Translations under genes and position numbers: made by a program
Notes under the pieces: generated by a model
Told to the model about the DNA's origin: nothing
Seen by the model: the letters and a program-made list of their open reading frames with translations, nothing else
Databases searched by the model: none
In this document: one piece after another, positions 18,013-45,009 of the stretch
How positions within the stretch are numbered: position 1 is the first letter of the stretch
Layout: each line of letters begins with the position of its first letter
Origin: Eledone cirrhosa
Lineage: Eukaryota
Assembly: GCA_964016885.1 (NCBI GenBank)
Contig: OZ024753.1
Coordinates: 9,052,001 to 9,116,000 of the forward strand
Reading direction: 5' to 3'
Length of the DNA stretch: 64,000 nucleotides

Positions 18013-18589
18013 TTATAGATGAATATTAAGAAGGACGTAGTTATGCAAAAACACCGGAGGCTATTACCCCCAGGTGGTGTCCAGCAGAAGCAAGAGGGAC
18101 GATCGTCGATGCATTTCAAACTTAACTGGTTCTCACCAGGACGATCCCTCCCACTGCTCTGCGACTGCTGGACTTGAAGACAGGTGAGAATATATAGTTT
18201 TCTCGTCTGTGTAAATGAGGTGATTAATCTCATTTGCATATGAAGCTGCATAAGTTGGCTCAACTTAGAATAGAATAGAATTAGTATTTAGCTTTGAGCT
18301 TAGCTGTATACAGATATGTATTAGAATGCCATATTTCTAAAGAAATACAGTATGTTTATAGATAAACATACCAGTGTTTTTTGCATAGCTACGGCTTTCC
18401 AATTGTTTATATATATATATATACCTATACATGACAACCACCCTAGTGTTGGTACCAGTTAGTAAAGTCAGTAAAGTGGTTTTTGTAAGGGCATCCCTCC
18501 AAATATGGGGTCAGTAGGACTCTCCTGCTATATCAAAGACATGACAACCTCATTAGTGCTGGTGTCTTGATAAAAATGAACTCAGTAAT

Positions 18590-19480
18590 AGTGTTGTAGT
18601 ATGGCCTGGCTGTTTAGATAGTGCTCTAGCATGGCCTGGCTTGTTAGATGGTGCTGTAGTATGTCCTGGCTTCTTACATGGTGTTGTAGCATAGCCAGGC
18701 TTCTTAGATGGTGCTGTAGCATGGCCAGGTTTGTTAGAATATGCTGCAGCATGGCCAGGCTTCTCAGGTGGTGCCCTAGCATGACCTGGCTTGTTAGATG
18801 GTGCTGTAGCATGGCCTGGCTTGTTAGATGGTGCTGTAGCATGGCCAGGCTGATTAGATTGTGCTGCAGCATGGCCAGGCTTCTCAGGTGGTGCCCTAGC
18901 ATGGCCAGGCTTGTTAGATGGTGCTGTAGCATGGCCAGGCTGTTTAGATGGTGCTGCAGCATGGCTAGGTTTGTTAGAATATGCTGCAGCATGGCCAGGC
19001 TTCTCAGGTGGTGCCCTAGCATGGCCTGGCTTGTTAGATGGTGCTGTAGCATGGCCAGGCTTTTCAGGTGGTACCCTAGCATGGCCAGGCTTTTCAGGTG
19101 GTGCCCTAGCATGGCCAGGCTTGTTAGATGGTGCTGTAGCATGGCCAGGCTGTTTAGATGATGCTGCAGCATGGCCAGGTTTGTTAGAATATGCTGCAGC
19201 ATGGCCAGGCTTCTCAGGTCGTGCCCTAGCATGGCCTGGCTTGTTAGATGGTGCTGTTGTACGGCCTGGTTTGTTAGATTGTGCTGTAGCATGGCCTGGT
19301 TTGTTAGAATATGTTGTAGCATGGCCTGGTTTGTTAGAATATGTTGTAGCATGGCCAGGTTTGTTAGATGGTGTTGTAGTATGGCCTGGCTTCTTACATG
19401 GTGTTGTAACCTGGCCTGGCTTGTTAGATGGTGCTTTGGCATGGCCAGGCTCTTTAGATGGAGCCCTGTGGAACGGCCAG
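18590..19480. repeat. 30 bp minisatellite (ATGGCCAGGCTTGTTAGATGGTGCTGTAGC), ~29 units
   Basis: Exact 30 bp register; 2-3-unit versions occur at ~24760, 33575, 35245, 40270 and 43360. Confidence 0.97.
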
Positions 19481-20206
19481 GATACTTGGAACAATCATTT
19501 CTAAATTTCGCGCATGCGCATTCAACTCCATCCAAACCAAGAAGAACAAAACAAATGGCCGTCAGTTTGGAGAATTTTTCAAGCTCTACAAAACTCTTGT
19601 TAAATGGTTTCAAAAGAGACAGTTGCAGTTTTCTGAAAGGTAACGTAAATGTTTATATTATGTTAAGATATTTTGGTAAATCTTTCCTTCATAATCAACC
19701 ATTTTAACGAAAGTCTTTCTCTACTTACGGTATTTCTAATGAAATACACAGACCACGTGTTCCAATTCATGTTGAAAATGAAAAAAATAAAATGTAGGGA
19801 TTTAATAATAAAATTCAACGCGTTTCTTTTTATTTTGCAAAAAATGTATCTAGTGTATTTTTTAAAAACTCTTCCTAGTTTTCCCTGTAACAGCTCAGTT
19901 GTCTTTAGCAAATATTTTCGATGTATTTAAATGTTTCTTTCAAGATTGAGATGAAAGACTGCAAATTGTCCATTCGATACTTCAGCAATGTTAAACATTT
20001 TCTGAAACTTGCAAATTAATTTTGTATTCTGGAGCAGATTCTACGGGGGGTCTCCTATGAGGTTATCTGGTGTTTTAAAGATAGGGGCCACAGCCCAATT
20101 ACCTGATCCCGCTCACATATTCCTGAGAGGGTCGTAAAAGCAGATTCCTCAACAACTTATCCCAGCGCGTCCAAGAGTTGTTTTAGACCCTGATAAAATG
20201 TGTGCC

Positions 20207-20243
<37 letters not shown>

Positions 20244-20874
20244 CGGTCTTAGATAATTGTTGCTAAATATTATCTAAAAATGTTGTAAATTAATTTCAGT
20301 TTTTAAAGCACTTTAACCCTCGATATGTTCGTTCTACGGGGGTGCTTCACATATGACGTTTGTCTGGTGTTTTAACAAAAGGGCCCGGCACATACACTAA
20401 CATCTCTCTCTATATATATATATATAAACTGGTTTTAAATAACCCGCTGGGTCAGGCCATTATAATGTGGAATCTTCGTTTATGTTGATGTATTATGGGT
20501 AAACTGTTTTTAGTTCCCTTCATAATATCGTCATTAGGGGTAGGTGGGTTCGATTCCTGGACTGGGTTGGGTGTTGTGTTTATTTTATTTCACGTTGCTC
20601 CAGTATACTCAGCTGTAGCTGGGTGGTTAACTCTGCGATGGACTGGCGCCCTGTCCAGCGCGTAGTCTTGTATTCTTAGATGTTTCACGCCATGGAATCC
20701 GGGGTACGCACCGGCGTGATGAGCCTCCGACCTTGGGACAGACTTTAGATATCATCAACCATTTGAACAGCCTTTTTTCTTGGACTCCAACCCTCGTGGT
20801 ACCCTATTTCTAACGGAATACACAGCCCATGCACCGCGATTAATATTGGAAAATAATGAAACTTTTGAAGGAAT

Positions 20875-21195
20875 TTAATAATTGTTTCTACTTTAGGCAC
20901 AAGGCCAGCAATTACCCAGTACATTACTGGTACTTTATTTTATCGACCCCCGTAAGGATGAAAGGCAAAGTCAACGGAATTTAATAATGATTTCTAGCAT
21001 TGGCACATGGCCAACAATTTAGGGTGAGGGGGAAGTCGACCCAGTACATTACTGGTGCTTTATTTACCGATGCCGTGAGGATGGAAGGCAAAGCTAACCT
21101 CGGTAGAATTTGAACTCAGAACGTAAATGGCCGTCACTCTGTGCCATAAAGCATATTGTCCGACGCTCTATCGATACTGCCAATTCACAGCCGTG
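20875..21195 (-). mobile_element. Two Nin/Deu-like SINE copies (one partial)
   Basis: Reverse complement of the family core and tail. Confidence 0.8.
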
Positions 21196-21689
21196 AAGGA
21201 ATTTAATAAAACCACCTTGGCTATCGTTTAACTTGTTGCGTGTAGGTCACTTAATCTGGATAAACATCACCTTTGTTCTTGCACGGCTATCGGAGCGGAG
21301 TTAGCTACGAGTGAGCCCTGCGAGATGCATTAGCTGTTTCAGTGTGTCACCCTTGCCATCCTCCCTAGCTCCGGAACCACGATTATATTTACTTAAGCAC
21401 TATTGTTGTATTATTAAAAAATGAAAAACCTGTGTGTTTGTTTTTTATTCACAAAATTAATGTTGAAAATAAACAATAAAATGTTGTGATTTAATAATAA
21501 AATTCAGCTTGTCTTCAGCAAATCTTTCGATTGGTTTAAATGTTTCTTTCAGGATTGAGATCAAAGACCGTAAATTTATGTTACAATTGTTTCATAAAGC
21601 CTACAGTTTGACAAATGTGTCCGAACACGGAAGAACCGAACTCCCACTGCCATCGCCTCCATCTCTCTGTATGGTGAGCAAATGGGGTC

Positions 21690-23900
21690 CTACGTGCTGA
21701 CCGCCCCACAGCTCCGGTGGACAGAATGGAGAAGGAGTTTTCCCGGAAGATGGTAAGGGAGATGCGCTGGAAGAGCCAATCCACCCTGCGAGGTTCACAC
21801 CTGCGGCTGGCCAGCTGACACCTGTGTCTAGTCAGCTCACACCTGCGGCTAGCCATCTCAGCGCCTATGGTGGTAAGTAGGGAGGTAGCTCTAGAGCCAA
21901 GGACACCAGAAGTCTCCATTGCTAAGGGCACGACTGCAAATCTGTCGGATAGCGACCGATACTTGAAGCGTTTGCCCTCATCAGCCCGAAGTATAGCAGA
22001 ACCTGGGTTAGTCACAGACTGTACCAGGAGAAAGTGACGCTGCAAGTGGCATCACAGACGAGGGGTTTGCCAAACAGAACGGGAAGATGGTCATACCATC
22101 TGGCCTTTTGCCGTACCCTCGGTCTAGCCCCACCGGCTCCAGCTGGGAGGGGAAGCCTACAGCACCAAAGCCATGATTTGTGACCTCTTTGAGGGTGGAA
22201 GGCGGACAGGAAAGCGGGTGGCGGCCGAAAGAGTCCACAGCGACATTTGTGTGGCTCACAGATCCGGAGGCCAAGCCTCAGGGAAACTCCGATATGCAGG
22301 CTATCGTTGTCAGTGGAGGAGGGTAAGGCATGGAGCCAGGTACCACTGTGGGGTTGTGAGGCCGCGCGAAAACTGCAAGATGACGCGTTAGAGATTTAAT
22401 GGCATCCCAAATATACTGAGATGCCATCCCAAATACTCTGGGGGAACATGACGTCAGCAGGGGGAGGAGGGACGTCTACTGGGCCAAGTCCAAGCTGGTT
22501 CCACGACTCACAGGCGACCTCACGTTCCTCGATCACAGAGGATTCCATTGTGTTTAGGAGAACCCTGTTGACGAGGACGTGGCATGAGATTACGGGCAAA
22601 GCCACCATATCTAAGAGGTAAGTTGACCTGTTGCCATCCAATGTTGTCAAACTTGACGTTGCATATCTCCTCGGCTGCCGCTTGGATACAAGTATCGAGG
22701 TCAGCGAGGAGAGATGCATGGCTGTAGCACTGCGAAGGGTATAGAGGAGCTTCGGCATGGCGAAGCAGTTCCTCAACAGGTAGAGGGCTGGGTGGGCGTC
22801 GATTATGCCCAGTCTGCACGTGAGGGTCTTTAGTTGCTGGAGCGGGTGGATTGGTGACCCAAAGATGAGGACATCTCCTTTGGGGGGGTCACCTGTACCG
22901 AGATGGAGGCTGCAAAGATCTCAGCAACATAGTTGACAGTCACCACCTCCGACTTGGAAGAGTTGACCTGGAGGCCGATTCCCGCCAGAGGAGGAACCAC
23001 TGATTGTAGGTGACAATCAGTCTCCACGGGCTCACCTAACGTAACATCATCCAGGTACCAAACGTTGAGAGGGGCCGTCATACTCTGGGCAATGTGGTCT
23101 ATTCCAAAAGCAAATAGGCGGAGGTCCCAAAGGGTCACCCTGTTGGACCCCATTATTTGAAGGTATGACCATAGCAGCAGCAAGGAACATGCTCGGGGCT
23201 CCATATGACAGGTAGGCAGAGGGGGCTCGGCTGAGGCAGGCATCAAGCAGGTAGTCACTGCGTATGGAGTCGAAGGCATTCCTCATGTCAAGCTTGACAA
23301 TGAGGTGCCTGGATGCCGGTTCCGGTCGGCAGCTGTGGAAGAACTGTGCGGCCACCGGACACGCCGACATCCAGTTGCACCGGACTCAGCTCCTCGCCCA
23401 GTTCAGGTGTGATGGACCTGCAGACCACCTTAGCAGCTAGCCTCCAGAAGACATTGCCCACAGCGAATGCCACTCACTTTCTTCCTGAGAGCAGTCAGAC
23501 TAGCTGAAAAAAGAAAGGCATCATGCGTGAGGGTCCAGGGCGCCATGGATGAGCCTATTTGTGAGTGCCACAATTGCACATAGAAGGCGGCGCCCGGCCT
23601 CAGTGGAGAGGGGAGATAACAACTCCTTGAGGTGGCCAGGTCAGAGACCATCAGCACCTGCGTTGCTGTTGGCTGGGAAGGTCTTGATGGGAAACATGAT
23701 GTCTACGCCGGAAGCCACTAGGAGCAAGTGAGGATCAGATAGGTCTAAGGTCGGCGGGCGGCTCAGGGTGCTTAAGCCGTAGGGTAGCCAGCACCTCCTC
23801 GGTGGGTTGGAGGACAATGTCCTCCGGGGCAACCACCCTGACTGCAGCCGAGATATCACCCATGATTAGTTTGGCGTAAAAGCTTTGCGCTGGCCTCAGC
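21690..23900 (-). pseudogene. Decayed CRE-clade non-LTR retrotransposon (RT plus restriction-like endonuclease), copy 1
   Basis: Frameshifted motifs AVGNVFWRLAAK, LIVKLDMRNAF, GVQQGDPLGP, WYLDD, LRNCFAMPKLLYTLR, LPLRYGG, KRPDG, PLAMETSG, WLFQRIS. Confidence 0.9.
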
Positions 23901-26900
23901 GGTGGAGGATTGGAGACCCCCCAAGAGCAAAGGGTGTGGAGTCCTTCGGTACACTTGGGATGGGGGCTTGCCCATAGGTCGAAACATTGGTTCAATTCTT
24001 CAGCAGTGCTAAATATTTTCTAAAACTGTAATTACAATTTAAATCCCCAAAGGAGGTGGAGGTTTTCTGCTGTAGCAGGCAGATAGGGGGGAGGGGCGAC
24101 TGTGCGTTGGCCACGGGCATCATTTCGGGAAAAGAACTTAATAAATTTGATTGATTTATATTAAAATCGAATAAAGCGTTTATATCGTGTTTCATCTGTT
24201 TATATATTCAAAATGTTTTCCTTTCTCAATATATTAGGCCTTATACTTGAGTCTTTGGGGCATTAGGGATTATACTTGAGTCTTTGGGGCATACAATCAA
24301 GATTTGCCCCGGGCATCACCAGAGCTCCGCACGTCGCTGTTTCTCTGGTCTGTCGCGAGCCAAGAAGCTTATCCCGTAAAGTGACTGAGAGTACAAGACG
24401 CCAGTCCATCACAAGCCCCCCCCCCCCCCCTCACTCATTTCTGGTACTCATTTTCAGCTGAATTATGCTGGCCGTAAAAACTAAAACAATTGTAAATTTA
24501 TTTCAGTTTTTCGATCACTTTCTTCCGCTGTATGTTCATCATTAGTTAACTGTCGATCAGTGTTTGCAAAGATCGATATCGACTAACTTGAGAGTTTATT
24601 TCGCCATCATTAAGTCCCAGGTTCGAACACACCCCATGTGAAACTGGTTAGACAGAAACTCTATAGAAGTCTGTCATCTGTAATTCAAATGGCCAGTCTC
24701 ATAAGGCTGAATCTTCCTGAGCATTAAGTATGTTCGCAATTATAGATTAATTTCTAGTGCTGTAGCATGACCAAGTTCTTTATATAATGCTGTAGCATGG
24801 CCAGGCTGTTTAGATGGTGCTGTAGCATGGCCAGGATACTTGGAACATGCGCACTGGGTTTCTAAATCTCGCGTTTGCGCATTCGACTCCATCCAACACA
24901 AGAAAATAAAATGGCCATCAGTTTACTAAATGGTTTAACAATGGACAATAGCAGCTTTCCGAAAGGTAACGTAGATTTTTATATTATGTTGAGAAATGTT
25001 TGTAAATCTTTCCCTCTTAGTCTCCTTCGTATAATCTACTATTTACACATACCTAGTTGTTCTCTTATTAACGTATTTTTAATGAAATACACACCTACAT
25101 GTTTCAATACATTGCGAATATAATAAGATTTAACAGATATTTTTAATTAATAAATATGTATCTAGTATAGTTTAAAATTCATTCCTACTTCTTCCTGGGG
25201 GTAGTTCCTTTGTCTTTATCAAATCCTGCTGTCGACTATTTCTCCTCATCAACATGTGGTTGTCTTCCTCTCCAGATCGAACTCGCTCCCACTTAGCAAT
25301 CGAACGAGGTGGTTTCGATCGTTGACTTTGGGAACTTTCCAAAAGCTGCCCACCTCCTGCAATGTTTAACAATGGATAATAGCAGCTTACCGAAAGGTAA
25401 CGTAGATTTTTATATTATGTTGAGGTATTTTTGTAGACCTTTCCCCCCTCTGTTCCTGGGGTAGTTCCTGTGTCTTTATCAAATCCTTCTGTCGACTATT
25501 TCTCCTCACCAATATGTGATTGTCTTCCTCTCCAGATCAAACTCGCTCCCACTTAGCATTCGAAAGTGATGGTTTCGATTGTTGACTTTTCCAAAAGTTA
25601 CCCACCCCTTGCAATCTTTCCGAGGTACACACAATAAGTCCACCTGTTCTCCATCTATGTTTTAAACCCCTTTACTCCCATTTGACTTTGTCGATGGGGG
25701 AATCTTATCTTCCGTCTTGTAATGTTGTACATTTAATTCTATACATCTAAGTTTTGTTTTCATCTTATTAGTCCAAGAACAGTGTACGTCTGTTCTTCTG
25801 GTAATCATGGTTGAAGTATTGATCAGTGTTAACAGATCGATATCTATTTCCCATCATTAGGTGAGAGAGTGACAACTTCGGCAAGTGTCATCATAACCTT
25901 CAGTTGGCCCATGTCCTGTGAGTTAAATTTAGTAGACAGAAACTGTCTGGAAGCCTATAAGATGGACTCTACCTGTAATAGAGACAGTCTTGTCACAGAC
26001 CGTGTGAAACTTCAGTATTTCTTCCCATAGTGGTTACAATGTTGAACTTACGATCATAATGTGATAAGTTCGATTCCTTGATCGTGTTGTGTTCTTGAGC
26101 AAAACACATCATTTCACGTATACTTATCTGAAAATGAATACCAGCAGCATCTTTGGGGTTTAACTCTGGAAGACAGTACTTCTAACGATCTTTCCTTCGT
26201 TTTGTTTTTGTCTTAATACTCCAAGAACAGTGTTGATTATTTTGACTTGTTGGTAATACATATATACACTGGTTCTTCTCCACTGCCTTGGTGTCCACTC
26301 TAATAGTTCACCTACTGTGGGGAAGCAAGAGTCGTGGCCAGCCCATCTATATTTGCCCGGTTATGTTCATTCAATTTTGTTGCTCTTCCTGGTATGATTT
26401 GCTCCATTCAGCTTCACGGTGGTCTGCCTTCTTGTGCTGTATAATGCCTTCAGGTCTCTTCAGTTATAAGCCTCTTTACTGGAACCTCAGATCACCATTC
26501 GATCTTTATTTTTCGTGTTTTACTTTGCAGTTTTGATTTTGCTTCTGATAAAGCTTATTCTTGTCATCGAACCAGTCTCTGTGTTTTGTCTTCTTAATAT
26601 ACAGTTCATCAGCCCCAACACTATAAACTTATGTTTTAAACTCTTCCCAAGTTCCACGACGTTGTCAAGTGCATTTCTAAACTAAAGTTTTGACACGTTT
26701 TGGCATTTGTACCCCTGCTGTCCTCATTTATTTCCATATTAATTGTTCTGCAAATATATATAGAAACGGAGTGAGATAACACACGAAATATATTTTGAGA
26801 CGTGTTACCTCCCTTTCTTTCCGTTTCTATATATTTAAAAAAAAAATAAACAAAATTTTACCTATAAGTATGACTAATTTACTCAGCAGAATTGCTGTTT

Positions 26901-27200
26901 AGCGTGGCGATGCGCGCAGCGGCTCGGACTTCGTCGTCAACATATGTATGTGTCGTTTCCATACTATGTGTCGGAAGTTCGAATCGTTGTGGTGTGCACG
27001 TGGCTGGGACTATTTGCAGGCTGGCTAGATGCGCGCGAAAAATCCGTCTTACCCCCTTTTGATCAAAAATGTTATTAGAGTTATCTCCCTCTATGTAACT
27101 CTTCTCTTTTTTTCAATTGACTTCCGGTTGTTTGAAAGAAAGCCATTTTGGATATCTTTCTCATGTAAAGAGGTATGTAATGTTTTCTTTCCTGCACACG

Positions 27201-27428: not shown

Positions 27429-27884
27429 TCTTTTCAAGTCTTCCACATAATGGTGGTTGAATATTACACCCCTATCGAAACTTAAGTTTTGAACGATTAT
27501 TATTTTAGAAAGTTCATTTACATTCTTAAGATTTACCATTTTTACGGAGGTAAAGCAACACCGCATATTTCTCTTCTAGATAAAACTTCATCTACATCCT
27601 TAGACGTTTCTTGCTTAAGAAACTTCTTCTACATTCTTAGTTTCTCTCTTCAGAAACATCAATGTCTCTATAATAAAAAACAAAGTCGGAAGAATTTTGT
27701 AAACATTCTTTTTATTGACAACGTACGTACATGACTTTAATAGATTTTCTTATTTCAGATGTCCAGCCTTCTAGGTCATGTGCTGTAACAATTGGGAATG
27801 ACGAAGTTTGTTAATAAAGAAAGTTTACAGATGTCCAGCCTTCTAGGTCATATGTTGTTTGCTGTAACAAGTCGGAATGAAGAA

Positions 27885-28236: not shown

Positions 28237-28395
28237 TACTAAAAAGAAACTAGGAAGTTTCTTTAGAAAGAATGTAAGTAAAGTGTCTGAAGAAAGTTTC
28301 TTAGGGAAGAATGTAGATCAAGTGTCTAAAAATAATCTGAATCAAGTTTCTTTAGAAGAATGTAGATGAAGTGGCTAAAAAAATGAACTTTTTTA

Positions 28396-28697
28396 AGAAT
28401 GTAGATGAAGTGTCTTAAAAAAAGGTACTAAGAATGTAGATGAAGTGTCTTAAAAAAAAAAGATACTAAAAATGTAGATGAAGTGTCTTAAAAAAAGATA
28501 ATAAGAATGTAGATGAAGTGTCTTAAAAAAGATAATAAGAATGTAGATGAAGTGTCTTAAAAAAAGATAATAAGAATGTAGATGAAGTGTCTTAAAAAAA
28601 GATAATAAGAATGTAGATGAAGTGTCTTAAAAAAAGATAATAAGAATGTAGATGAAGTGTCTTAAAAAAAGATAATAAGAATGTAGATAAAGTGTCA
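28396..28697. repeat. 35 bp minisatellite (AAGAATGTAGATGAAGTGTCTTAAAAAAAGATAAT)
   Basis: 8-9 units with a degenerate lead-in from ~28250. Confidence 0.93.
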
Positions 28698-31600
28698 AAA
28701 AAAAAAAATCTATATGAAATGTGTGTTTTTGAAAAGTCGAAAAAAATTTCTATATGAAATGAGTGTTTTTGAAAAGTCGAAAAAAAAATCTATATGAAAT
28801 GTGTGTTTTTCAAAAGTCGAAAAAAATTTCTATATGAAATGAGTGTTTTTGAAAAGTCGAAAAAAATTTCTATATGAAATGTGTGTTTTTGAAAAGTCGA
28901 AAAAAAAATCTATATGAAATGTGTGTTTTTCAAAAGTCGAAAAAAATTTCTATATGAAATGTGTGTTTTTGAAAAGTCGAAAAAAATTTCTATATGAAAT
29001 GTGTGTTTTTGAAAAGTCGAAAAAAATTTCTATATGAAATGAGTGTTTTTGAAAAGTCGAAAAAAATTTCTATATGAAATGTGTGTTTTTGAAAAGTCGA
29101 AAAAAAAATCTATATGAAATGTGTGTTTTTCAAAAGTCGAAAAAAATTTCTATATGAAATGTGTGTTTTTCAAAAGTCGAAAAAAATTTCTATATGAAAT
29201 AAGTGTTTTTGAAAAGTCGAAAAAAATTTCTATATGAAATGTGTGTTGTCGAAAAAAAAATCTATATGAAATGTGTGTTTTTGAAAAGTCGAAAAAAATT
29301 TCTATATGAAATGAGTGTTTTTGAAAAGTCGAAAAAAATTTCTATATGAAATGTGTGTTTTTCAAAAGTCGAAAAAAATTTCTATATGAAATGTGTGTTT
29401 TTGAAAAGTCGAAAAAAAAATCTATATGAAATGTGTGTTTTTCAAAAGTCGAAAAAAATTTCTATATGAAATGTGTGTTTTTGAAAAGTCGAAAAAAATT
29501 TCTATATGAAATGAGTGTTTTTGAAAAGTCGAAAAAAATTTCTATATGAAATGTGTGTTTTTGAAAAGTCGAAAAAAATTTCTATATGAAATGTGTGTTT
29601 TTGAAAAGTCGAAAAAAAAATCTATATGAAATGTGTGTTTTTCAAAAGTCGAAAAAAATTTCTATATGAAATGTGTGTTTTTGAAAAGTCGAAAAAAATT
29701 TCTATATGAAATGAGTGTTTTTGAAAAGTCGAAAAAAATTTCTATATGAAATGTGTGTTTTTGAAAAGTCGAAAAAAAAATCTATATGAAATGTGTGTTT
29801 TTCAAAAGTCGAAAAAAATTTCTATATGAAATGTGTGTTTTTCAAAAGTCGAAAAAAATTTCTATATGAAATAAGTGTTTTTGAAAAGTCGAAAAAAATT
29901 TCTATATGAAATGTGTGTTTTTGAAAAGTCGAAAAAAAAATCTATATGAAATGTGTGTTTTTGAAAAGTCGAAAAAAATTTCTATATGAAATGAGTGTTT
30001 TTGAAAAGTCGAAAAAAATTTCTATATGAAATGTGTGTTTTTCAAAAGTCGAAAAAAATTTCTATATGAAATGTGTGTTTTTGAAAAGTCGAAAAAAAAA
30101 TCTATATGAAATGTGTGTTTTTCAAAAGTCGAAAAAAATTTCTATATGAAATGAGTGTTTTTGAAAAGTCGAAAAAAATTTCTATATGAAATGTGTGTTT
30201 TTGAAAAGTCGAAAAAAATTTCTATATGAAATGAGTGTTTTTGAAAAATCGAAAAAAATTTCTATATGAAATGTGTGTTTTTGAAAAGTCGAAAAAAATT
30301 TCTATATGAAATGTGTGTTTTTGAAAAGTCGAAAAAAAAATCTATATGAAATGTGTGTTTTTCAAAAGTCGAAAAAAATTTCTATATGAAATGAGTGTTT
30401 TTGAAAAGTCGAAAAAAATTTCTATATGAAATGTGTGTTTTTGAAAAGTCGAAAAAAATTTCTATATGAAATGTGTGTTTTTGAAAAGTCGAAAAAAAAA
30501 TCTATATGAAATGTGTGTTTTTGAAAAGTCGAAAAAAATTTCTATATGAAATGTGTGTTTTTCAAAAGTCGAAAAAAAAATCTATATGAAATGTGTGTTT
30601 TTCAAAAGTCGAAAAAAATTTCTATATGAAATGTGTGTTTTTCAAAAGTCGAAAAAAATTTCTATATGAAATAAGTGTTGTCGAAAAAAATTTCTATATG
30701 AAATGTGTGTTTTTGAAAAGTCGAAAAAAAAATCTATATGAAATGTGTGTTTTTGAAAAGTCGAAAAAAATTTCTATATGAAATGAGTGTTTTTGAAAAG
30801 TCGAAAAAAATTTCTATATGAAATGTGTGTTTTTCAAAAGTCGAAAAAAATTTCTATATGAAATGTGTGTTTTTGAAAAGTCGAAAAAAAAATCTATATG
30901 AAATGTGTGTTTTTCAAAAGTCGAAAAAAATTTCTATATGAAATGAGTGTTTTTGAAAAGTCGAAAAAAATTTCTATATGAAATGTGTGTTTTTGAAAAG
31001 TCGAAAAAAATTTCTATATGAAATGAGTGTTTTTGAAAAGTCGAAAAAAATTTCTATATGAAATGTGTGTTTTTGAAAAGTCGAAAAAAATTTCTATATG
31101 AAATGTGTGTTTTTGAAAAGTCGAAAAAAAAATCTATATGAAATGTGTGTTTTTCAAAAGTCGAAAAAAATTTCTATATGAAATGAGTGTTTTTGAAAAG
31201 TCGAAAAAAATTTCTATATGAAATGTGTGTTTTTGAAAAGTCGAAAAAATTTCTATATGAAATGAGTGTTTTTGAAAAGTCGAAAAAAATTTCTATATGA
31301 AATGTGTGTTTTTGAAAAGTCGAAAAAAATTTCTATATGAAATGAGTGTTTTTGAAAAGTCGAAAAAAATTTCTATATGAAATGTGTGTTTTTCAAAAGT
31401 CGAAAAAAATTTCTATATGAAATGTGTGTTTTTGAAAAGTCGAAAAAAATTTCTATATGAAATAAGTGTTTTTGAAAAGTCGAAAAAAATTTCTATATGA
31501 AATGTGTGTTTTTCAAAAGTCGAAAAAAATTTCTATATGAAATGTGTGTTTTTGAAAAGTCGAAAAAAATTTCTATATGAAATAAGTGTTTTTGAAAAGT

Positions 31601-32850: not shown

Positions 32851-35506
32851 GTGTTACGGTTGAGGGCGAAAATTCCCAATGAACGTAAGTGAATAAACAA
32901 TTTAAGGTCTTTGATCTCAATCTTGAAAAAAGCATTTAAATATTAACTAAAACTAGGAAGAGTTTTTAAAAAATACAATCACATATTTTCTGTGAATAAA
33001 AAATAAATGTTATTAATTCCCTACATTTTCAACCATGATTACCAGAAGAACAGACGTACACTGTTCTTAGACTAATAAGATGAAAACAAAACTTAGATGT
33101 ATAGAATTAAATGTACGACATTACAAGACGGAAGATAAGATTCCCCCATCGACGAAGTCAAATGGGAGAAAAAGGGTTTAAAACATAGATGGAGAACAGG
33201 TGGACTTATTGTGTGTACCTCGGAAAGATTGCAAGGGGTGGGAAACTTTTGGAAAAGTCAACAATCGAAACATATCACTTTCGATTGCTCAGTGGGAGCG
33301 AGTTTGATCTGGTGAGGAGAAATAGTCGGCAGAAGGATTTGATAAAGACAAAGGAACAGAGGAGGGAAAAATCTACAAAAATACCTCAACATAATATAAA
33401 AATCTACGTTACCTTTCGGTAAGCTGCTATTATCCATTGTTAAACCATTTAGCAAGAGTTTTTATAAAGCTTGTAAAATTCTACAAACTGATGGCCATTT
33501 TTTGTTTGTTTGTTTTGGATGGAGTAGAATGCGCAAGCGCAAGATTTAGGAACTCAGTGCGCATGTTCCAAGTATCCTGGCCATACTACAGCACCATCTA
33601 AACAGCCTGGCCATACTACAGCATTATCTAAACAGCCCGGCCATGCTACAGCATGTATCATTTCATCAAAGAATAATTTAAAAAATCGATACAAATGTGA
33701 CTAATACGTACCTTGATGGCTTCCATGTTTAAGGGTGTGCGATTGACACATGGCCCCAGTTCTTGGCATGTTAAAAGACAGGTCATCCTTTTATAAGCTG
33801 CAAATGTGGACCGTATGGAGGGACAGCAGACCTCACCTTATATCAGATGTGACACCGTATCATGGTACAATCTGAATGACCGGGACCCGGATCTGCCACA
33901 ATATCTCATCAGATATGAGCAAAAACACATTCACACCTTTAACTTTAATTACGGAATTACCTAATATATATGTTTGTAAGCGTGGGGATTGAATAACTGC
34001 ACTGTGGAGCTTATCGTTAAAACCTCACCCATAGATCCTGCTCCAGAATACAAAATATTTAGCACTGTTGAAGAATTGAATCAACAATTTAAGGTCTTTG
34101 ATCTCAATCTTGAAAGAAGCCTTTAAATACACCTAAATCTTGGAAGAGTTTTAAAGAAATACAATCGACATATTTTCTGTGAATAAAAAAGAAATATGTT
34201 ATTAATTCCCTACATTTTATTGTTTCTTTTCAACACGTGCTCTGTGTATTTCATTAGGAATACGGTAAGAAGGGACTTCCTCTAGATAGGACGCCAGTCG
34301 ATTGCAAGGTTAAAGTATGTCTCAAACCCGGAGGCTCATTGGACCGGTGCTTAGTCGGCTGAAAATACAAGAGCCTCACCTACTGGAGCCACATGAAATG
34401 AAGTGTTTTGCTCAAGAACACAACACGATCAAGGAATCGATCTTATCACATATGATCGTAACCACTATGGGAAGAAATACTGAAGTATGTGACAAGACTG
34501 ACTCAATTACAGGTACAGTCCATCTTACAGGCTTCCAGAGAGATTCTGTCTACTAAATTTCACTCGCAGGACATGGGTCAACTGACGGTTATGATGACCC
34601 TTGCCCAAGATGTCTCTCTCTCTCACCTAATGATTGAGAATTCACGTGGGGAAAAGTTAATCGATATCGTTCTGATCAATACTTCAACCATGATTACCAG
34701 AAGAACAGACGTACACTGTTCTTAGACTAATAAGATGAAAACAAAACTTAGATGTACAACATTACAAGACGGAAGATAAGATTCCCCCATCGACAAAGTC
34801 AAATGGGAGAAAAGGGGTTTAAAACATAGATGGAGAACAGGTGGACTTATTGTGTGTACCTCGGAAAGATTGCAAGGGGTGGGTAACTTTTGGAAAAGTC
34901 AACAATCGAAACCATCACTTTCGATTGCTAAGTGGGAGCGAGTTTGATCTGGAGAGGAAGACAGTCACATATTGGTGAGGAGAAATAGTCGACAGAAGGA
35001 TTTGATAAAGACACAGGAACTACCCCAGGAACAGAGGGGGGAAAGGTCTACAAAAATACCTCAACATAATATAAAAATCTACGTTACCTTTCGGTAAGCT
35101 GCTATTATCCATTGTTAAACCATTTAGCAAGAGTTTATATAAAGCTTGTAAAATTCTACAAACTGTCGGCCATTTTTTGTTGGTTTGGGATGGAGTAGAA
35201 TGCGCAAGCGCGAGATTTAGAAACTCAGTGCGCATGTTCCAAGTATCCTGGCCATACTACAGCACCATCTAAGATCCATGGCCATGCTACAGCATTATCT
35301 AAACAGCCCGGCCATGCTACAGCATATATCATTTTATCAACGAATAACTAAAAAAATCGATACAAATGTGACTAATACATACCTTGATGGATTCCATGTT
35401 TAAGGGTGTGCGATTGACACATGACCCCCAGTTCTTGGGATGTTAAAAGACAAACACAACCTTAGATGTAACAGCTGCCGTGTGGGGGACAGCTACCACA
35501 ATAAAC

Positions 35507-36205
35507 TCTATGTAAAAAGATTGTCAATGCTCTAGGGACCACATTAGGCGATTTAGCGATCTTTCTCTTTTTAGATAGATACATACATATAACGTCCCGC
35601 CCTTATAATATATGTCTGCATTACCACTTCCCTGAGGATGTCTGTGAGTTTGAATCCCTAAAACTCGAGAAGTACCCAACCGACTTTTTTCAAACTTTAC
35701 ATGTGTATTACTTATGTTTCAGGGAGTGTTATGCACATAAAATCAACTTTTTGATCTCCTAGGGCCCGCATTAGGTGAAAAACTGCGTTTTTAAGCTTTT
35801 TACGGTTTTTTTGAGGCGTTACGTCAGACCGATTTCCTTGAAATTGTAACTATGTATTAGTCAGTTTCTTCATACCGTGAGCAAAGAAAATTCAACTTTT
35901 TTATGGCCTAGGGCCCGCATTAGGTGAAAAACTTCATTTTTTCAGCTTTTTGGAGGCGTTACGTCTAGCCGATTTTCCCAAAATTTCAAGGCATATTATG
36001 CACATAAAAAAAATTCATTTTCTTGATCCTCTAGGGCCCGCATTAGGTGAAAACCTGCTTCATCGAGGAAAATCTTAAAGATTATCCAGCCATCAGAGTA
36101 TTCGGTTTAATTTCTTTACATATTGTCCATGCATGCAGTTTTTCCACGATTAGGTCTGTTGGCGGCCCGCGTTCCAAAATACCTTACGCCGGGTATCACT
36201 GCTAG
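35507..36205 (+). mobile_element. Non-autonomous Helitron
   Basis: 3' ACGCCGGG...CTGCTAG|T end shared with the other Helitrons; internal CTAGGGCCCGCATTAGGTGAAAA repeated three times; similar to 50081-50637; 5' end approximate. Confidence 0.7.
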
Positions 36206-36990: not shown

Positions 36991-37612
36991 ATAAGCTGGA
37001 AGCTAGGTGGCGATAATGGGCAGTAATTCCCAATGAACGTAGGACACGGCCAATTGACATCAACACCTCCTGGCCAAGGCTATGTCCATCGAAGGTGAAT
37101 GAATGTGAGGCACCTGAGTACATAATTATGCCTATATATATATATCATCATCATCATCATCGTTTAATCTTCCACCCTAGCATGGATTAGACGGGTTTGT
37201 CCCATTTAGAGGCAAATTGGGTCGGGTGGCCGTGTCTCGCTCATATATATATATATAAGCAGGAACGAAGTCAATTGCAGCATACATATAAATTTTATTG
37301 GCATATTGCAATCGTATCAATACCGATCATATCATGGTGCAATCAGAATGACCGGTGCAATCAATATCTCATCAGATATGTGAGTTTATATGAGCAAAAA
37401 CATATTCACACCTGTAACTTGAATTACGGAATTACCTAATATATATGTTTGTAAGCGTGGGGATTGAATAACTGCACTGTGGAGCTTATCGTTAAAACCT
37501 CACCCATAGATCCTGCTCCAGAATACAAAATATTTAGCACTGTTGAAGAATTGAATCAACAATTTAAGGTCTTTTATCTCAATCTTGAAAGAAGCCTTTA
37601 AATACACCTAAA

Positions 37613-39793
37613 TCTTTATATATATAAAAGCGAGGATGTGTGTGTGTCTGTGTACAACTTTGCATGCATAAGGCTTTCACAATTACCAACTGAATTTGAC
37701 CAAATTTTCTGTGCACGTTGCACATGTCGCTAAGATTGTCACATCACAAACATTTTTCAAACCGACCCACGTTGAGTAATAAAAAATCGATATCAAAATG
37801 ATCGGTAGAAAAATTGATTTAAGGGAAATAACAAACTTTATTGACAATCCTTATAAAAAAGGGAGATAACCTTTTCACCAAATATGCCTCGTAAAAGAAA
37901 GTATGCACATATTGGCTATCGGTCGAAGAAAACAATGCGTGTAAATGACGCTCCGCCGATAACCGAAAATAGACAATCACTAAATGCGGTGAGTACAGTT
38001 ATTGCAACATCTTTGTCCGCCGCTGAGCGTCGGTTAGTGCGGCGAACCAATAATGCTGAAGCAACTGCTGCAGAGCAACGTGAAACACGCCTTGCTATGG
38101 ATGCTACAGATACTGCTGCAGCAAGATCTGCAGAGACAGTACAAAAGTATGAAAGGCAGCAACTTTGCTCCCTGGTGGAAGGACGGCACATTCAGTTTTT
38201 AAATTGCCCCTTGATTTGGCAAAATTGGAAACTCCTACTTGTCATATCACCAAAAACTCCGAAAGGGCTCATCTGCTGCGAAGGTGTCACCTTATTGTTT
38301 GGGATGAGTGCACAATGGCACACAAAGGTGCTCTTGAGGCACTAGACGGGTCTTTACAAGACCTACGGGATTGCAGTGATGTTATGGGGGGTGTCACCCT
38401 TATGCTATCAGGAGACTTCAGACAGACTCTTCATATAATACCGAAAGGAACAAGAGCAGATGCGGTAAATGCATGTCTTAAGTCTTCACCATTATGGCGA
38501 CAAGTGACATCATTAAGACTAACTACCAACATGCGTGCAAGGCTGCATGGGGACCCTCTGTCATCAACATTTTCTGGAGACATTCTTACAATAGGAGATG
38601 GTAACCTATCTCCGGATACAGATGGACACATAGCAATTGATCACATCTGCAATGTAGTTGAAACTGTCTATGATCTCAAGACGAGTGTATTCCCGAACTT
38701 GCGTGATAACTATACGAATCTTTGGCTATGCAAAAGAGCCATTCTTGCACCCCAAAATATCACGGTTAGCTGTATTAATGATCAGTTTCTTCCTGGATGT
38801 CCAGGGATATATAAATCTATTGATACTGTATGTGCTCCACAGGATGCGGTCAACTATCCAGTTGAATTTCTAAATTCTTTAAATCCTCCTGGTTTACCTC
38901 CTAATACATTGGTTCTGAAAGTGGGAACGCCAGTTATTTTGCTGAGAAATATCACTCCTCCAAAACTATGCAATGGTACACGCCCTGTGGTTAAAAAACT
39001 GTCTCCTCTTAGTATTGACGCTACCATTCTATCAGGATGTGGAAAAGGTGAGGATGTGATAATAACAAAAATTAGCCTGACTACATCAGGCGTGGATACT
39101 CCATTCTCCTTTCGCCGAACCCAATTTCCCCTTCGTGTTGCCTTTGCGATGTCCATAAACAAGTCGCAAGGTGAAACTCTGTCCGTCGCTGGAATTCACT
39201 TGGATGAACCTTGCTTTTCGCACGGACAATTCTACGTTGCCTGCTCACGAGTTGGCAGTCGAGATAATCTCTTTGCGTTTGTTCCGAAAAGAAAAACAAA
39301 GAATATCGTCTATCCTGAAGTGCTTTAGTGTTAACAAAAAAACTTATTACAGCTCTGCCTTGACTTTACCTTACACATTACAAAACATACCAATGAATAT
39401 GTCATGCAGGATATTTTGGATTATAAGTTCAAAATGTAACCATACACAGCAAAGGATGCTCTCAAAGAATAGATTTTCTCTTATTCTACTCATTGTTTTT
39501 TTGTTTGTATACAACTCTGCTTTCATTACAACTTTTGGTACTTTAGCAAAACTGCCTGTTTTTTTTTTATAGATTTGCAACGTGTATTGTCTTTAATCAT
39601 TTGTATAACTACATCCTGTTCAGTGTTTTCCTTCATTATCAGCATAGTTTTATGTGTACAAAGATTGCATTAATTATTGAAGACTTCTGCTTATTTTGAC
39701 AGGTTGGGGAGAAATAATGTTCTTCTTTTACTTCCTAGCTGTATATTCTTAGCATAATTTCAAACCCTGAGCAACGCCGGGTAAATCTGCTAG
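37613..39793 (+). mobile_element. Internally deleted Helitron
   Basis: A|TC 5' end; subterminal hairpin CCCTGAGCAACGCCGGG; CTAG|T 3' end; PIF1 helicase ORF inside. Confidence 0.93.
37884..39328 (+). pseudogene. Truncated Helitron Rep/Hel: N-terminus joined out of frame to the PIF1 helicase C-terminal part
   Basis: MPRKRK...EQRETRL, then GGRTAHSVFK, IVWDECTM, GDFRQTL, LCNGTR, QFPLRVAFAMSINKSQG, FSHGQFYVACSRV, NIVYPEVL; HUH domain and Walker A absent. Confidence 0.9.
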
Positions 39794-41324
39794 TATTAAC
39801 TAAAACTAGGAAGAGTTTTAAAGAAATACAATCGACATATTTTCTGTGAATAAAAAAGAAATATGTTATTGATTCCCTACATTTTATTGTTTCTTTTCAA
39901 CACGTGCTCTGTGTATTTCATTAGGAATACGGTAAGAAGGGACTTCCTCTAGATAGGACGCCAGTCGATTGCAAGGTTAAAGTATGTCTCAAACCCGGAG
40001 GCTCATTGGACCGGTGCTTAGTCGGCTGAAAATATAGGAACCTGACCTACTGGAGCCACATGAAATGAAGTGTTTTGCTCAAGAACACAACACGATCAAG
40101 GAATTGATCTTATCACATATGATCGTAACCACTATGGGAAGAAATACTGAAGTATGTGACAAGACTGACTCAATTACAGGTACAGTCTATCTTACAGGCT
40201 TCCAGAGAGATTCTATCTACTAAATGTCACTCACAGGACATTTAGAAACTCAGTGCGCATGTTCCAAGTATCCTGGCCATACTACAGCACCATCTAAACA
40301 GCCTGGCCATACTACAGCATTATCTAAACAGCCCGGACATGCTACAGCACTAGAAGTTAATCTATAATTACGAAGATACGTAATTCTCAGGGAGATCTTA
40401 CGATCTTTGATCTCAATCTTGAAAGAAACATTTAAATCCACTGAAAGATTTGCTAAAGACATCAGAGCTGTTAAGGGAACACTAGGAAAAGTTTTTTAAA
40501 AAATATACACTAAATATATTCTCTGTGAATAAAAAAGAAACATGTTAAATTTTATTATTATTTTATTAATCCCTACATTTGGTTGGTACCTCCTGGACAG
40601 GGCGCCTTGTCCATCGCAGGGTTAACTCTACAGCCGAGTCTACTGGAGCAACGTGAAATAAAATAAACACAACACCCAACCCAGTCCAGGAATCGAACCC
40701 ACCTACCCCTAATGACGATATTATGAAGGGAACTAAAAACAGTTTACCCAGAATACATCAACATAAACTAAGATTCCACATTATAATGGCCTGACCCACC
40801 GGGTTATTTAAAACCAGTTTATATATATATATATAGATGTTAGTGTATGTGCCGGGCCGGACCCTTTTGTTAAAACACCAGACAAACGTCATATGTGAAG
40901 CACCCCCCGTAGAACGAACATATCGAGGGTTAAAGTGCTTTAAAAACTGAAATTAATTTACAACACTTTTAGATAATATTTAGCAACAATTATCTAAGAC
41001 CGATTTATATCTATATATATGGCACACATTTTATCAGGGTTTAAACAACTCTTGGACGCGCTGGGAGAAGTTGTTGAGGAATCTGCTTTTACGACCCTCT
41101 CAGGAATATGTGTGCGGGGATTGGGTAATTGGACCCTATCTTTAAAACACCAGAGAAAACCTCATAGGAGACACCCCCGTAGAATCTGCTCCAGAATACA
41201 AAATTAATTTGCAAGTTTCAGAAAATGTTTAACATTGCTGAAGTATCGAATGGACAATTTGCAGTCTTTCATCTCAATCTTGAAAGAAACATTTAAATAC
41301 ATCGAAAATATTTGCTAAAGACAA

Positions 41325-43175
41325 CTGGCTGCCAAGATGATCTGCAAGTCCGTCACACACGAACTGGGTGAGGAGTTTAGTCCGGTGCAACTGGGTGTTG
41401 GCGTCTCCGGTGGCCGCTCATGCAACCAGGCAGTTCTTCAGCAGCTGCCCATCGGTACCGCCATCCAGGGACTCCAGGCACCTCATTGTCAAGCTTGACA
41501 TGAGGTATGCCTTCAACTCTTTACGCCAGGATCATCTGCTCGAGGCCTGCCTCAGCCGAGCCCCCTCTTCCTGGCCTACCTGTCATATGGAGCCCCGAGC
41601 ATTCTCCTAGCTGCTGATACGGTTATACCTTCGGCTACTGGGGTCCAACAGGGTGACCCTTTGGGACCCCTCCTGTTCGCCCTTGGTATTGACCACATCG
41701 CCTGGAGTATCACGGCCCTTCTGAACGTTTGGTATCTGGATGATGCTACGTTGGGCGGGCCCATACGGACGGTCTGTCATGACCTTCAATCGGTGGTTCC
41801 TGTCCTGGTGGGAATCGGCCTCCAGGTCAACTCGGAGGTGGTGAACGTCAGCCTCGATGCTGCGAGCTTTGCAGCCTCCGTCTTGGACGTGTGATCCATT
41901 CTCCGCAAGGTTCAGGTGACCCCAAAGAGGATGTCCTCATCCTCGGGTCACCGATCCACCATCAAGTCCAGGCTTCAACAGCTCCAGACTCTCACGAGCC
42001 GACTGAGCTTGATTGACGGCCACCCAGCTCTCTTTCTGCTGAGGAACTGCTTCGCCATGCCGAATCTCCTCTATACACTCTGCAACGCTCCATGCTACAC
42101 CCAGACATCTCTCCTCGCAGACCTTGATATTTGTATCCGAGTAGCAGCCGAGGGGATATGCAACGTCAAGCTTGACGACATAGGGTGGCAACAGGCCACT
42201 TTACCTGTCAGGTATGGCGGCCTTGGCCTCTGGTCCCCGATCTCACTAGCTTTGCCAGCGTATCTTTCGTTGGTAACTCGTGCCGCGTCCTCAACAGCAG
42301 GGTTCTTCAAAACACAACTGAACCCTCTGTGTTCAGAGAACATGAGACCGGCTGGGACTTAGCCCAGTAGGCGTCCCTCCTCCTTCTCCCCCTGTTGTCG
42401 TCAAGTCCCCCCAACGCACTTGGGATGCCATCCAGTGCAGCCTGGCCTCAGAAAGGCTCACGCGCCAGCTCAACCAGCACCGCCTTGCTTGTTTTCGTGC
42501 GGCCTCCAAACCCCATAGTGGTGCCTGGCTTCATGCCTTGCCCTCCTTCTCCACTGGCACGCAGCTAGACAACCATAGTCTGCGCATCGGCGTTTCCCTG
42601 AGGCTCGGCCTCTGGATCTGCCAGCCACACCAAAGTCGCTGCGGTTCCACCGTGGACTCTTTCGGCCTCCACCCGCTTTCCTGTCGCCACAGTGCCGGCG
42701 GCATTCCACGTCATGCTGCCCTCAACGAGGTCATTAAGCATGGCTTGGACGCTGCAGGCTTCCCTTCCCAGCTCGAGCCGGTGGGGCTGGATCGAGGGGA
42801 CGGCAAAAAGCCAGATGTCATGACAATCTTCCCGTTCCGTGGTGGCAAACCCCTCGTCTGGGATGCCACTTGCACCGACACTTTCTGCAGCCGCAACCTG
42901 CGACTGACCCAGGTTCTGCTGCACATCGGGCTGAAGGGACCAAACTCCTCAAATACCGGCTGCTCTCCGACAGGTTTGCGGTCGTACACCTGGCAGTGGA
43001 GACTTCTGGTGCCCTCGGCCCCAGGGCTACCTCCTTACTCACCACCATAGGTGCTGAGCTGGCCAGCCCCAGGTGTGAGCCCCGCGAGTTGGAGTGGCTT
43101 TTCCAGCGCGTCTCCATTGCTGTCCTCTGGGGGAAACGCTTTCTTCATTGTCCGCCAGGGATGTGGGTGGGCCCC
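41325..43175 (+). pseudogene. Decayed CRE-clade retrotransposon, copy 2 (opposite orientation)
   Basis: LIVKLDMRYAFNS, GVQQGDPLGPLLF, WYLDDATLGG, QATLPVRYGGLGL, zinc-knuckle C..RCGSTVDSFGLHPLSC, KKPD..VWDATC, LFQRVSIA. Confidence 0.9.
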
Positions 43176-43906
43176 ATCACGTACCGTTGTAGTTATGGTA
43201 TACAGATTTTGCCATCATTATTATTATTGTCTTTCTGTCTAGCCCTGAATTAGATCCCGTCATTATACTAGCATCCTAGCTTAAAATCCAAAACCTTTCT
43301 TAACTTATTTACTGAGCTGTTACAGGGAAAACTAGGAAGAGTTTTAAAAAAATAATGTAAGAAGCCAGGCTGTACTACGGCATCATCTAACAAGCCAGGC
43401 CATGCTACAGCACCATCTTAAACAGCCAGGCTATGCTACAGCACTATTACCGAGTGCATTTTTATTGGAACACCAGCACTAATGAGGTTGCCATGTCTTC
43501 GATATAGCAGGAGAGTCCCCCTGACCCCATATTTGGAGGGATGCCTTTACGAAAACCACTTTACTGACTTTACTAAGTGATACCAACACTAGGGTGGTTG
43601 TCATGTATTTGATACAGTTGAAGGGTCCTCCTTGTTTCTGTTTTGGGCTCAAAGCTAACAATTTTTGGGGAGGGGAAAGTTGATTAACTCGACCCCAGTG
43701 CATTATTGTATGCTTACCTGGCAGGTGCTTAGGTATATTGTGCGCTGGGGTTAGCCCCTCTAGGTGTGTCGTCTTACCCTTCTCCCAGTTGTACCTATCA
43801 TTCTCCTGAGAATAACTGTTTCTACTTTTGGCACAACGCCAGAAATTTCCCCAGTTCATTACTGGTGTTTTATTTTATTAAAGTTAACCAATGATGAACA
43901 TAAAGA

Positions 43907-44060
43907 TGGTGCATGGCTTAGTAGTTAGAGTATTGGGCTTGCAATTGAAAAGTTGTGAGTTCAATTCTCGGACCGGGTGATGTGTTGTTTCCTTGAGCAA
44001 GACACTTTATTTCACGTTGCTCCAGTTTACTCAGCTGTAGAGATGAGATGATAGGGACTG
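43907..44060 (+). mobile_element. CORE-like SINE, 5' half
   Basis: Boxes A and B plus core. Confidence 0.85.
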
Positions 44061-44297
44061 ATATGAATTTACAACTGTTTTAGTTTTTACGTATGATTCA
44101 GCTGAAAATGAGTACCAGCAATAAGTGGAGGGTTAATCCTGTGATGGACTAGCACCCTGTCCAGGGGAGAGTCTTGTACTCTGTCACTTTAGGGGATAAG
44201 CTTCTGAGCTTGTGACAGACAAGAGAACCTCCACATACTTTAGGGATTTAAGGCCACAAGACAATTGCTGACTAAATAACAATTATTAAATTGTGAA

Positions 44298-44488
44298 TGG
44301 CGGTGGATTGGCAGTATCGGTAGAGGGTCGGACGCCATGCTTTGATGCATAGAGTTACGGCCCTTGCTATTCTGAGTTCAAATCCCGCCGAGGTTAACTT
44401 TGCCTTTCATCCTTACGGGGTCGATAAAATAAAGTACCAGTAATGTACTGGGTAATTTCTGGCCTTGTGCCAATAGTAGAAACAATTA
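44298..44488 (+). mobile_element. Nin/Deu-like SINE with TSD
   Basis: Full head to tail; ATTAAATTGTGA repeated on both sides. Confidence 0.9.
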
Positions 44489-45009
44489 AATTGTGATTAC
44501 AGTTTTAGAAAATATTTAGCACTGCTGAAGTATTGAACCAATGTTTCGAACTTTGGACAAGCGCCATCCCAACCTAATCATGGGTGATGTCTTGGCTGCA
44601 GTCAGAGTGGTTGCCTCGGAGGACACTGGCCTCCGACCCACTGAGGAAGTCATGGTCATCAGCAATCAACAATTTACGGTCTTTGATATCAATCTTAAAA
44701 GAAACATTTAAATCCACCAAAAGATTTGCTAAAGACATCAGAGCTGTTACAGGGAAAACTAGGAACAGTTTTAAAACAAAATACACTGTGAATAAAAAAG
44801 AAACATGTTGAATTTTATTATTATTTTATTAATCCCTACATTTTATTGTTTATTTTCAATATTAATTTTGTGAATAAAAAACAAACACAGGTTTTTCATG
44901 TTTTAATAATATAATAATAGTGGTTAAGTAAATATATTCTACATGCCCTCGCCATAAACAAAACTTAAGGGTCAGTCTGTCTCGGACGTAAAATGATGAT
45001 GATGATGAA

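Follow-up and report, generated by a model that had tools for sequence, protein, structure and literature searches.

Part of the published description of the foldback transposon Tetris of Drosophila virilis gives it long non-repetitive outer arms, inverted inner repeats, no coding capacity and satellite growth (PMC4079207), and part of another report relates the proposal that long, spaced terminal inverted repeats (TIRs) form secondary structures and breaks (PMC2775673). The locus analysed here lies in a stretch of 64,000 nucleotides of Eledone cirrhosa (assembly GCA_964016885.1, contig OZ024753.1, positions 9,052,001 to 9,116,000 of the forward strand), hereafter the window, in which a domain of about 26 kb (18427-44940) carries broken copies of one unit facing inwards from both sides of a central foldback-like element. 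With slightly better than even confidence, the domain is considered to be a decayed spacer-palindrome, in which a tandem array of units would have been inversely duplicated once, the duplication being centred in, and probably seeded by, that element. The window is eukaryotic DNA of 38% G+C, with abundant TA microsatellites, short interspersed elements (SINEs), whose patterns look cephalopod-like, and fragments of long interspersed elements (LINEs).

Orientation switch and order of the unit copies

Mirror pairs were mapped by self-BLAST of the window, and cross-centre matches of at least 40 bp were counted. Opposite strands were found in 124 of 125 such matches, the lone same-strand match being a SINE, and no inverted matches were recovered within either arm. 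Inside the domain, all 24 unit-module matches on the left were on the plus strand and all 38 on the right on the minus strand, in a hand count of matches that are not independent of one another and that omits modules W and Y, both defined from the right arm only. These results bear out the claim of an earlier note on this DNA that the modules face opposite ways across the centre, and the unit modules do so without exception. Dispersed SINEs occur in both orientations on either side of the centre, and the switch of orientation thus belongs to the local modules. In the left arm, 8327 bp long, opposite-strand matches account for 5861 bp (4255 bp without the pair of CRE-like retrotransposons described below), and in the right arm, 12609 bp long, for 6264 bp (4511 bp without that pair); unit homology ends about 630 bp to the left and 550 bp to the right of the central element.

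The inverted pairs listed in the earlier note were all recovered close to where it had placed them, always on opposite strands. With gaps excluded, divergence was 8.5% between 18427-18650 and 43360-43607, 2.4% between 19895-20660 and 40590-41325, 8.4% between 21385-21580 and 44670-44937, 10.7% between 23780-24040 and 44487-44655, and 14.7% between 24330-24500 and 44060-44230. The stretch 24755-25000 is 10.3% from 33380-33655 and 8.4% from 35065-35325. The two further pairs on the strength of which divergence had been called uneven differ by 16.3% (the CRE pair, 21700-23440 with 41325-43170) and 3.3% (25366-26120 with 34395-35120); the CRE pair is not a duplicated block.

The window was painted with 20 reference blocks, from which a master order could be read: an upstream block P, a 30-bp minisatellite, a promoter-like stretch, an exon-1-like stretch, an intron, an exon-2-like stretch and a downstream part. 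About ten broken unit copies face inwards, four on the left (plus strand; L1 to L4) and six on the right (minus strand; outermost first, R1, R2, R3', R3, R4 and R5). Rather than shuffled cargo, each module is a piece of a single unit and keeps its place in that order. The permuted order that had been described gives way to an order that, deletions and insertions aside, is constant within each unit copy, the apparent permutation arising from the extra copy R1, the triplication R3-R5 and deletions.

On the left, L1 (18427-20658) is the most complete copy, running from block P through the downstream part, and its minisatellite (18591..19461, plus strand) holds 29 copies, compared with 2.6-2.8 copies in other units. 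L2 (21381-24550) consists of an intron end, an exon-2-like stretch split by a CRE-like insertion, and a SINE. L3 (24711-25367) and L4 (25364-26119) follow, L4 including a young tract (25364..25815); from 25816 to 26753, a SINE-derived block V is followed by a minus-strand LINE-like fragment. On the right, R2-R3'-R3 is a colinear mirror of L1-L2-L3 with readable deletion junctions. R2 (40593..43608) mirrors L1 at 8.5% in the P block and 2.3% in the exon-2/downstream tract, R3' (40404..40580) is an L2-type fragment that a deletion has brought up against the mirror of 24711, and R3 (37330..40396), interrupted by a Helitron, mirrors L3 at 10%. R4 (33858..35452) and R5 (32887..33780) repeat the R3 type in direct orientation, 2.6-4.0% apart (R4 is 4.0% from R5 and 2.6-2.7% from R3), and R1 (43870..44939) is an extra copy of L2 type. 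For R3 and R4, a chimeric origin from two adjacent units is possible.

The central element and the layers of divergence

The centre has the anatomy of a foldback transposon. Two arms of about 390 bp, the left at 26754..27145 (plus strand) and the right at 31917..32331 (minus strand), differ by 9.6% and each bear an 80-nt hairpin at the tip (DNA fold z -6.0 and -10.5, respectively). Between them, a 17-bp motif occurs in three minus-strand copies (27511..27638) and then in twelve plus-strand copies within 35/49-bp arrays (28268..28693), a strand flip that places the symmetry centre of the element between 27638 and 28268; 16 matches were reached in none of 100 shuffles. A 40-bp satellite of 81 copies (3.2 kb; 28700..31909, plus strand) follows and weakly resembles the 35- and 97-bp units. 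No frame of at least 150 amino acids (aa) was found in 26.7-32.4 kb, and the shorter scanned frames there had no Pfam match. The observed/expected CpG ratio is 1.4-1.5 in both arms. The hairpin-tip pattern gave 0 matches in metagenome contigs.

Outside the left tip, 23 bp (26726..26748, plus strand) are mirrored at 32358-32380 with 21 of 23 positions identical, a level that none of 300 shuffles attained (best 18). Compared with shuffles, these 23 bp adjoining the tips were the only homology found between the two flanks of the element, with nothing further out. Among the 25 longest candidates for a target-site duplication there were only overlaps of TA runs and one 7-mer, and a TA-type duplication at the tips is indistinguishable from the TA microsatellite. 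At the inner end of the left arm (27122-27180), a donor-like site follows motifs that we take to be ETS- and YY1-like. A separate 85-nt hairpin at 17230-17314 (z -11.1), beside a TA run and unrelated to the central tips, is possibly a small miniature inverted-repeat transposable element.

Divergence in the domain falls into three layers, of about 15-17%, about 9% and 1-4%. The oldest separates L1 from L3, R4 and R5 (15-17%). Seven mirror blocks across the centre differ by 7.3-13.6% each and by 9.3% when pooled (116/1248), and the arms of the central element differ at 37 of 384 sites; blocks and arms together are homogeneous (chi-square p=0.64, or p=0.78 once CpG and gap-adjacent sites are dropped), and the arms are not distinguished from the pooled blocks (Fisher p=0.84). 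Beside blocks at 7-9% sit two homogenised tracts, L1/R2 (17/724, 2.3%) and L4/R4 (4/438, 0.9%), each differing from the pool at p<1e-9. The nearest relatives of these copies lie across the centre, L1 and R2 being identical over 54 sites of exon 2, and L4 and R4 identical over 83 sites of exon 1 and different at 2 of 167 sites of block T. The start of L4, where 3-4 bp of microhomology join block T to mid-exon-1, makes it likely that L4 was copied from R4 across the centre by template switch or conversion, and the young tracts point to later arm-to-arm copying.

Origin of the domain

For the spacer-palindrome with a single inverted duplication, the following course can be proposed. An older tandem duplication would have given the L1, L2 and L3 types, and an inverted duplication by fold-back or template switch (present divergence of about 9%) would have given both arms, the element arms being coeval. 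The right-side L3-type unit would then have been tandemly triplicated (R3, R4 and R5; 2-4%) and the extra L2-type R1 would have arisen, gene conversion or template switching between the arms would have replaced two tracts (L1/R2 and L4/R4), and the symmetry would have been broken by deletions, Helitrons, SINEs, the second CRE insertion and satellite growth. No selected function is needed for this history. A causal role of the element is what we infer from its matching age and the mirrored flank. These same two features (arms at 9.6%, blocks at 9.3%; the 23-bp mirror) lend indirect support to the proposal in the earlier note of inverted duplication at the element; "repeated", as the note had it, is overstated, since one orientation switch together with ordinary tandem duplication and deletion suffices. 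Template switching, also proposed there, is supported as a later event for one tract, L4, by its microhomology start and its 0.9% divergence from R4.

Hints on copy number came from three contig sets of one sample and one run of restriction-site-associated DNA (RAD) reads, taken from another individual and aligned to 19465-27880 only. These runs differ from the window haplotype (at several places only the other letter is seen) and include no long reads; summed contig depth is not copy number, and only its ranking was used. Two contig pieces matching exactly had depths of 6.4 and 7.5. Summed depth was about 4 million for the SINE, 14,000-168,000 for most of the CRE and 70-630 for the unit modules, and in the central element it was 543-599 for the arm, 133-181 for the outer flank and 55-73 for the interior. 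By this ranking the unit and the arm are low-copy, with probably more copies than the window contains. RAD reads from the SphI site at 19512 were nearly all unlike L1 (314/315 at 19648), which also suggests additional copies or alleles resembling L1.

Several observations weigh against the favoured reading. A single switch is seen, the switch-back junction not being in the window. The mirrored 23 bp may be the true tip of the element arm rather than host flank; beyond 23-31 bp the flanks of the element are non-homologous and hold unrelated LINE-like pieces, and the inner sides of its arms are asymmetric. Blocks were assigned to the "old" and "young" groups with the divergences already in view, so the tests describe the grouping and are no independent proof of it, and blocks as short as these (140-384 sites) leave equal age loose, while cause cannot be demonstrated from age. 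R1, R3' and L2 are about equidistant (49-98 sites), which does not fix the origin of R1. Finally, the aligned contigs and reads suggest unit copies beyond those in the window, and donors may consequently lie outside it.

The loss of flank homology past about 30 bp would also be expected if the inverted duplication had arisen independently, by a staggered break or a template switch at a short repeat, with the foldback element a passenger inserted in the spacer at about the same time. The TA runs at both tips permit a TA-type target duplication, the high depth of the arm relative to flank and interior is like that of a dispersed element end, and in part of a Drosophila study 17 of 29 breakpoints carry inverted duplications of non-repetitive sequence (PMC1885836). 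A passenger, however, would turn the matching age into coincidence and require the mirrored 23 bp to belong to the element, and it is judged unlikely, though to be taken seriously. Slightly less probable again is a Galileo-type inversion through a chimeric element, of which the 9.6% arm divergence would be the signature: turning the right arm round yields a plain tandem array, and part of the Galileo literature describes chimeric copies at inversion breakpoints with TIRs about 6% divergent (PMC2775673). Such an exchange of flanks would not leave a single copy with mirrored sequence outside each of its tips, and no third arm copy occurs in the 64-kb window although the right array ends at 44939. 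Doubtful, and more so than either of these, is the broader proposal of an undescribed hairpin-tipped foldback family that repeatedly turns its neighbourhood into palindromes, its ends priming fold-back copying of flanking host DNA; if true, other insertions would also lie between mirrored flanks, and promoter/first-exon modules would be multiplied genome-wide.

The earlier note had also raised a giant composite element whose arms collect cargo; in this reading the whole 26 kb would be a transposon moving as a unit. Unit modules and element arm do seem multi-copy in the other individual's data, but the outer ends, 18427 and 44939, are not mirrors of each other and have no matching termini, the ages within the arms are mixed, and the modules resolve into ordered unit pieces and independent transposable elements. 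Moreover, no transposase was found in any of the 64 stop-free frames of at least 75 aa in 17-46 kb, only a Helitron helicase and fragments of reverse transcriptase (RT), so this proposal is very improbable. Two readings deserve still less credence. Independent landing of dispersed repeats in random orientation does hold for the CRE pair and the SINEs (depths of 1e4-1e5 and 4e6; CRE sites and 3' ends differ); the unit modules, three to four orders of magnitude below the SINE in depth, are colinear and all follow the switch, which contradicts, within the window, the dispersal that the earlier note had named as the outcome speaking against its view. An assembly artefact, whether a fold-back chimera or collapsed repeats, is hardly credible with arm pairs 0.9-15% apart, many indels and copy-specific insertions of transposable elements. 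In its favour, among the contig pieces listed none exceeds about 310 aligned bases; against it, these same pieces include matches to the L3-specific junction 25003-25227 from two of three runs of one sample.

Insertions, the nature of the unit and neighbouring features

Pfam was searched with 99 frames, namely all 64 of at least 75 aa in 17-46 kb and 35 of the 43 of at least 80 aa outside, with eight low-complexity frames and the frames of tandem arrays omitted; these returned PIF1, four fragments of RT and, below the cut-off, three weak matches that are unrelated. A CRE-like retrotransposon of the restriction-like endonuclease (RLE) type, with stops, frameshifts and a weak RVT_1 match, lies at 21577..23986 (minus strand) in the exon-2-like stretch of L2, and a second, 5'-truncated one at 41328..43310 (plus strand) in R2, within a 4-bp target duplication CAGT (41324-41327 / 43311-43314). 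The clade is presumed from motifs alongside the weak RVT_1 matches. L2 and R1, which keeps a remnant of about 120 bp (44542-44663), have an identical CRE 5' junction, implying one insertion. The R2 site lies about 75 bp from the L2 site in unit coordinates, the two long copies are 14.3% apart at non-CpG sites with codon periodicity in their substitutions (0/2000 shuffles), and their 3' tails cannot be aligned beyond about 125 bp. Read from these sequence features, the CRE pair is two independent insertions and not a duplicated pair. Both lie antisense to the unit, in paralogous exon-2-like stretches. RLE clades, CRE included, are mostly target-specific according to part of one report (PMC4640811), and a preference for the exon-2-like target is possible, although the family is very abundant.

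A Helitron at 37613..39793 (plus strand) has TC...CTAG ends and a PIF1 helicase frame (38153-39325, E 8e-40), and a non-autonomous Helitron-like insertion at 35560..36205 (plus strand) runs TC...CTAG between A and T. Judging from the junctions, R4 (34120-34140) reads as R3 minus the Helitron 37613-39793, with the first four bases left and about 14 bp of the 3' flank gone. A probable second non-autonomous Helitron, at 50190-50637, has a 5' end like that at 35560 and a 3' end like the 39793 terminus. An RTE-like LINE fragment at 32432..32846 (plus strand) has a direct duplicate at 36373-36805 (7.2%). The LINE-like fragment of the left flank is presumably of RTE type on the basis of its motifs, with no database match; the sole LINE relative found was a C-terminal one of 206 aa.

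In L1, a promoter-like and exon-1-like stretch (19462..19640, plus strand), whose function is presumed, ends in the donor-like GAAAG|GTAACGT, and the exon-2-like stretch (19893..20010, plus strand) is preceded by a pyrimidine tract and a CAG acceptor-like site. The donor-like 12-mer is identical in five copies, against 0.23 matches expected, and the acceptor-like tract is present in all four copies that keep that part. Upstream of the exon-1-like stretch the observed/expected CpG ratio is 0.74-0.87 (0.81 for 19462..19640) compared with 0.54 for the window, and the palindromic GCGC motif GCGCATGCGC stands at 19510 in the promoter-like stretch, whose motifs we take to be of NRF1 and YY1 type. 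These donor-, acceptor- and promoter-like features suggest the 5' end of a gene. The copies are likely non-coding or pseudogenic; frameshifts distinguish them, and short tests revealed no codon periodicity. No protein homolog of the exon-like stretches was found among 7504 candidates (Atlas scores at most 0.80), and six-frame translation of the window showed no zinc-finger pattern of C2H2 type. A HMMER match of P0001 to an exon-like stretch was rejected, the protein being 9-fold repeated and only 12 residues matched, and 5' ends of a protein-coding gene family were set aside, no open homologous frame under selection being found.

Non-coding RNA was sought as well. An Rfam scan gave 61 matches at E 0.1, all below the gathering score and none inside 18427-44940, and no tRNA genes were found in the window. 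The 3' end of exon 1, the donor and an AT4-5G run (19606-19690; also 24932, 25364, 35122 and 33447, the last two on the minus strand) recall spliced-leader RNA, whose hallmarks, in part of one report, include a WWG|GTA donor and an intronic AT4-6G Sm site (PMC3795323). By inspection, the donor is present in five of five copies and an Sm-like run in four of five; in the window as a whole, an Sm-like run lies within 50 nt of 11 of 190 such donors, unit copies included. Folding produced no three-stem Y shape but one weak, conserved hairpin over the donor that falls short of significance (z -0.3 to -1.6), its main stem shows no compensatory double-sided changes, and no spliced-leader family was among the Rfam matches. 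A spliced-leader RNA gene is accordingly very hard to credit. A pre-miRNA fold at the donor is weak.

Elsewhere in the window, an exon-like stretch with acceptor- and donor-like ends lies just upstream of L1 (18072-18183). A stretch richer in GC and CpG at 16330-16560 (minus strand) has a donor-like site near 16368 and a stop-free frame of 156 aa (16352-16819), with no match in Pfam or the PDB; it is possibly an exon belonging to a gene that runs leftwards. Tandem arrays occur at 1828-3060, 7658-11554, 45351-45919 and 63475-63929, and their units include a SINE-derived 143-bp unit in eight copies, a 31-bp unit in 121 copies and a 112-bp unit in opposite halves of the right end. A further local palindrome at 57706-58232 is made of two inverted SINE copies (84%).

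Relation to known systems

No literature joining cephalopods and foldback elements was found in open-licence PMC and bioRxiv, subscription literature and repeat databases lying outside that search. Foldback transposons (Tetris, FB and the Galileo type), as far as the consulted parts of their descriptions go, share with the central element its outer arms, its inverted inner repeats, its lack of coding and a satellite derived from internal repeats. Here, by contrast, no 8-10-bp target duplication was found, an 80-nt hairpin occupies each tip and the satellite is one-sided.

If the spacer-palindrome reading is true, this one locus preserves, in compact and layered form, the joint workings of a foldback-type element, inverted duplication, copying between arms and the birth of a satellite. 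Each of these processes is known from flies, maize or mammals, and the value of the locus is therefore that of a test case and of a lead to a new repeat family. Its importance would grow if other copies of the element had mirrored flanks, or if the unit were an expressed promoter or small-RNA gene preferred by CRE elements.

Inverted duplication starting at transposon ends is common to this locus and to sister-chromatid or alternative transposition of maize Ac/Ds (10.1101/2020.01.07.897926); in the part of that work at hand, the transposase of the maize cases is known and they show footprints and target duplications of 8 bp, none of which can be demonstrated here, where the event is old. DUP-TRP/INV-DUP (duplication-triplication/inverted-duplication) rearrangements and origin-dependent inverted-repeat amplification likewise involve an inverted copy at an inverted repeat and a palindrome later rearranged (parts of PMC11293582 and PMC10766186), but the cases so described are recent and human, their arms nearly identical and their junctions two in number, compared with the single visible switch of this domain. 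Spacer palindromes of the mammalian X and Y, in a similarly partial account, also have inverted arms round a spacer and locally homogenised tracts; their arms are more than 99% identical over more than 10 kb, whereas those of the present domain are about 91% identical, fragmented, and share only two young tracts. Taken together, these comparisons concern known mechanisms, of which the Eledone cirrhosa domain is a new and unusually datable example.

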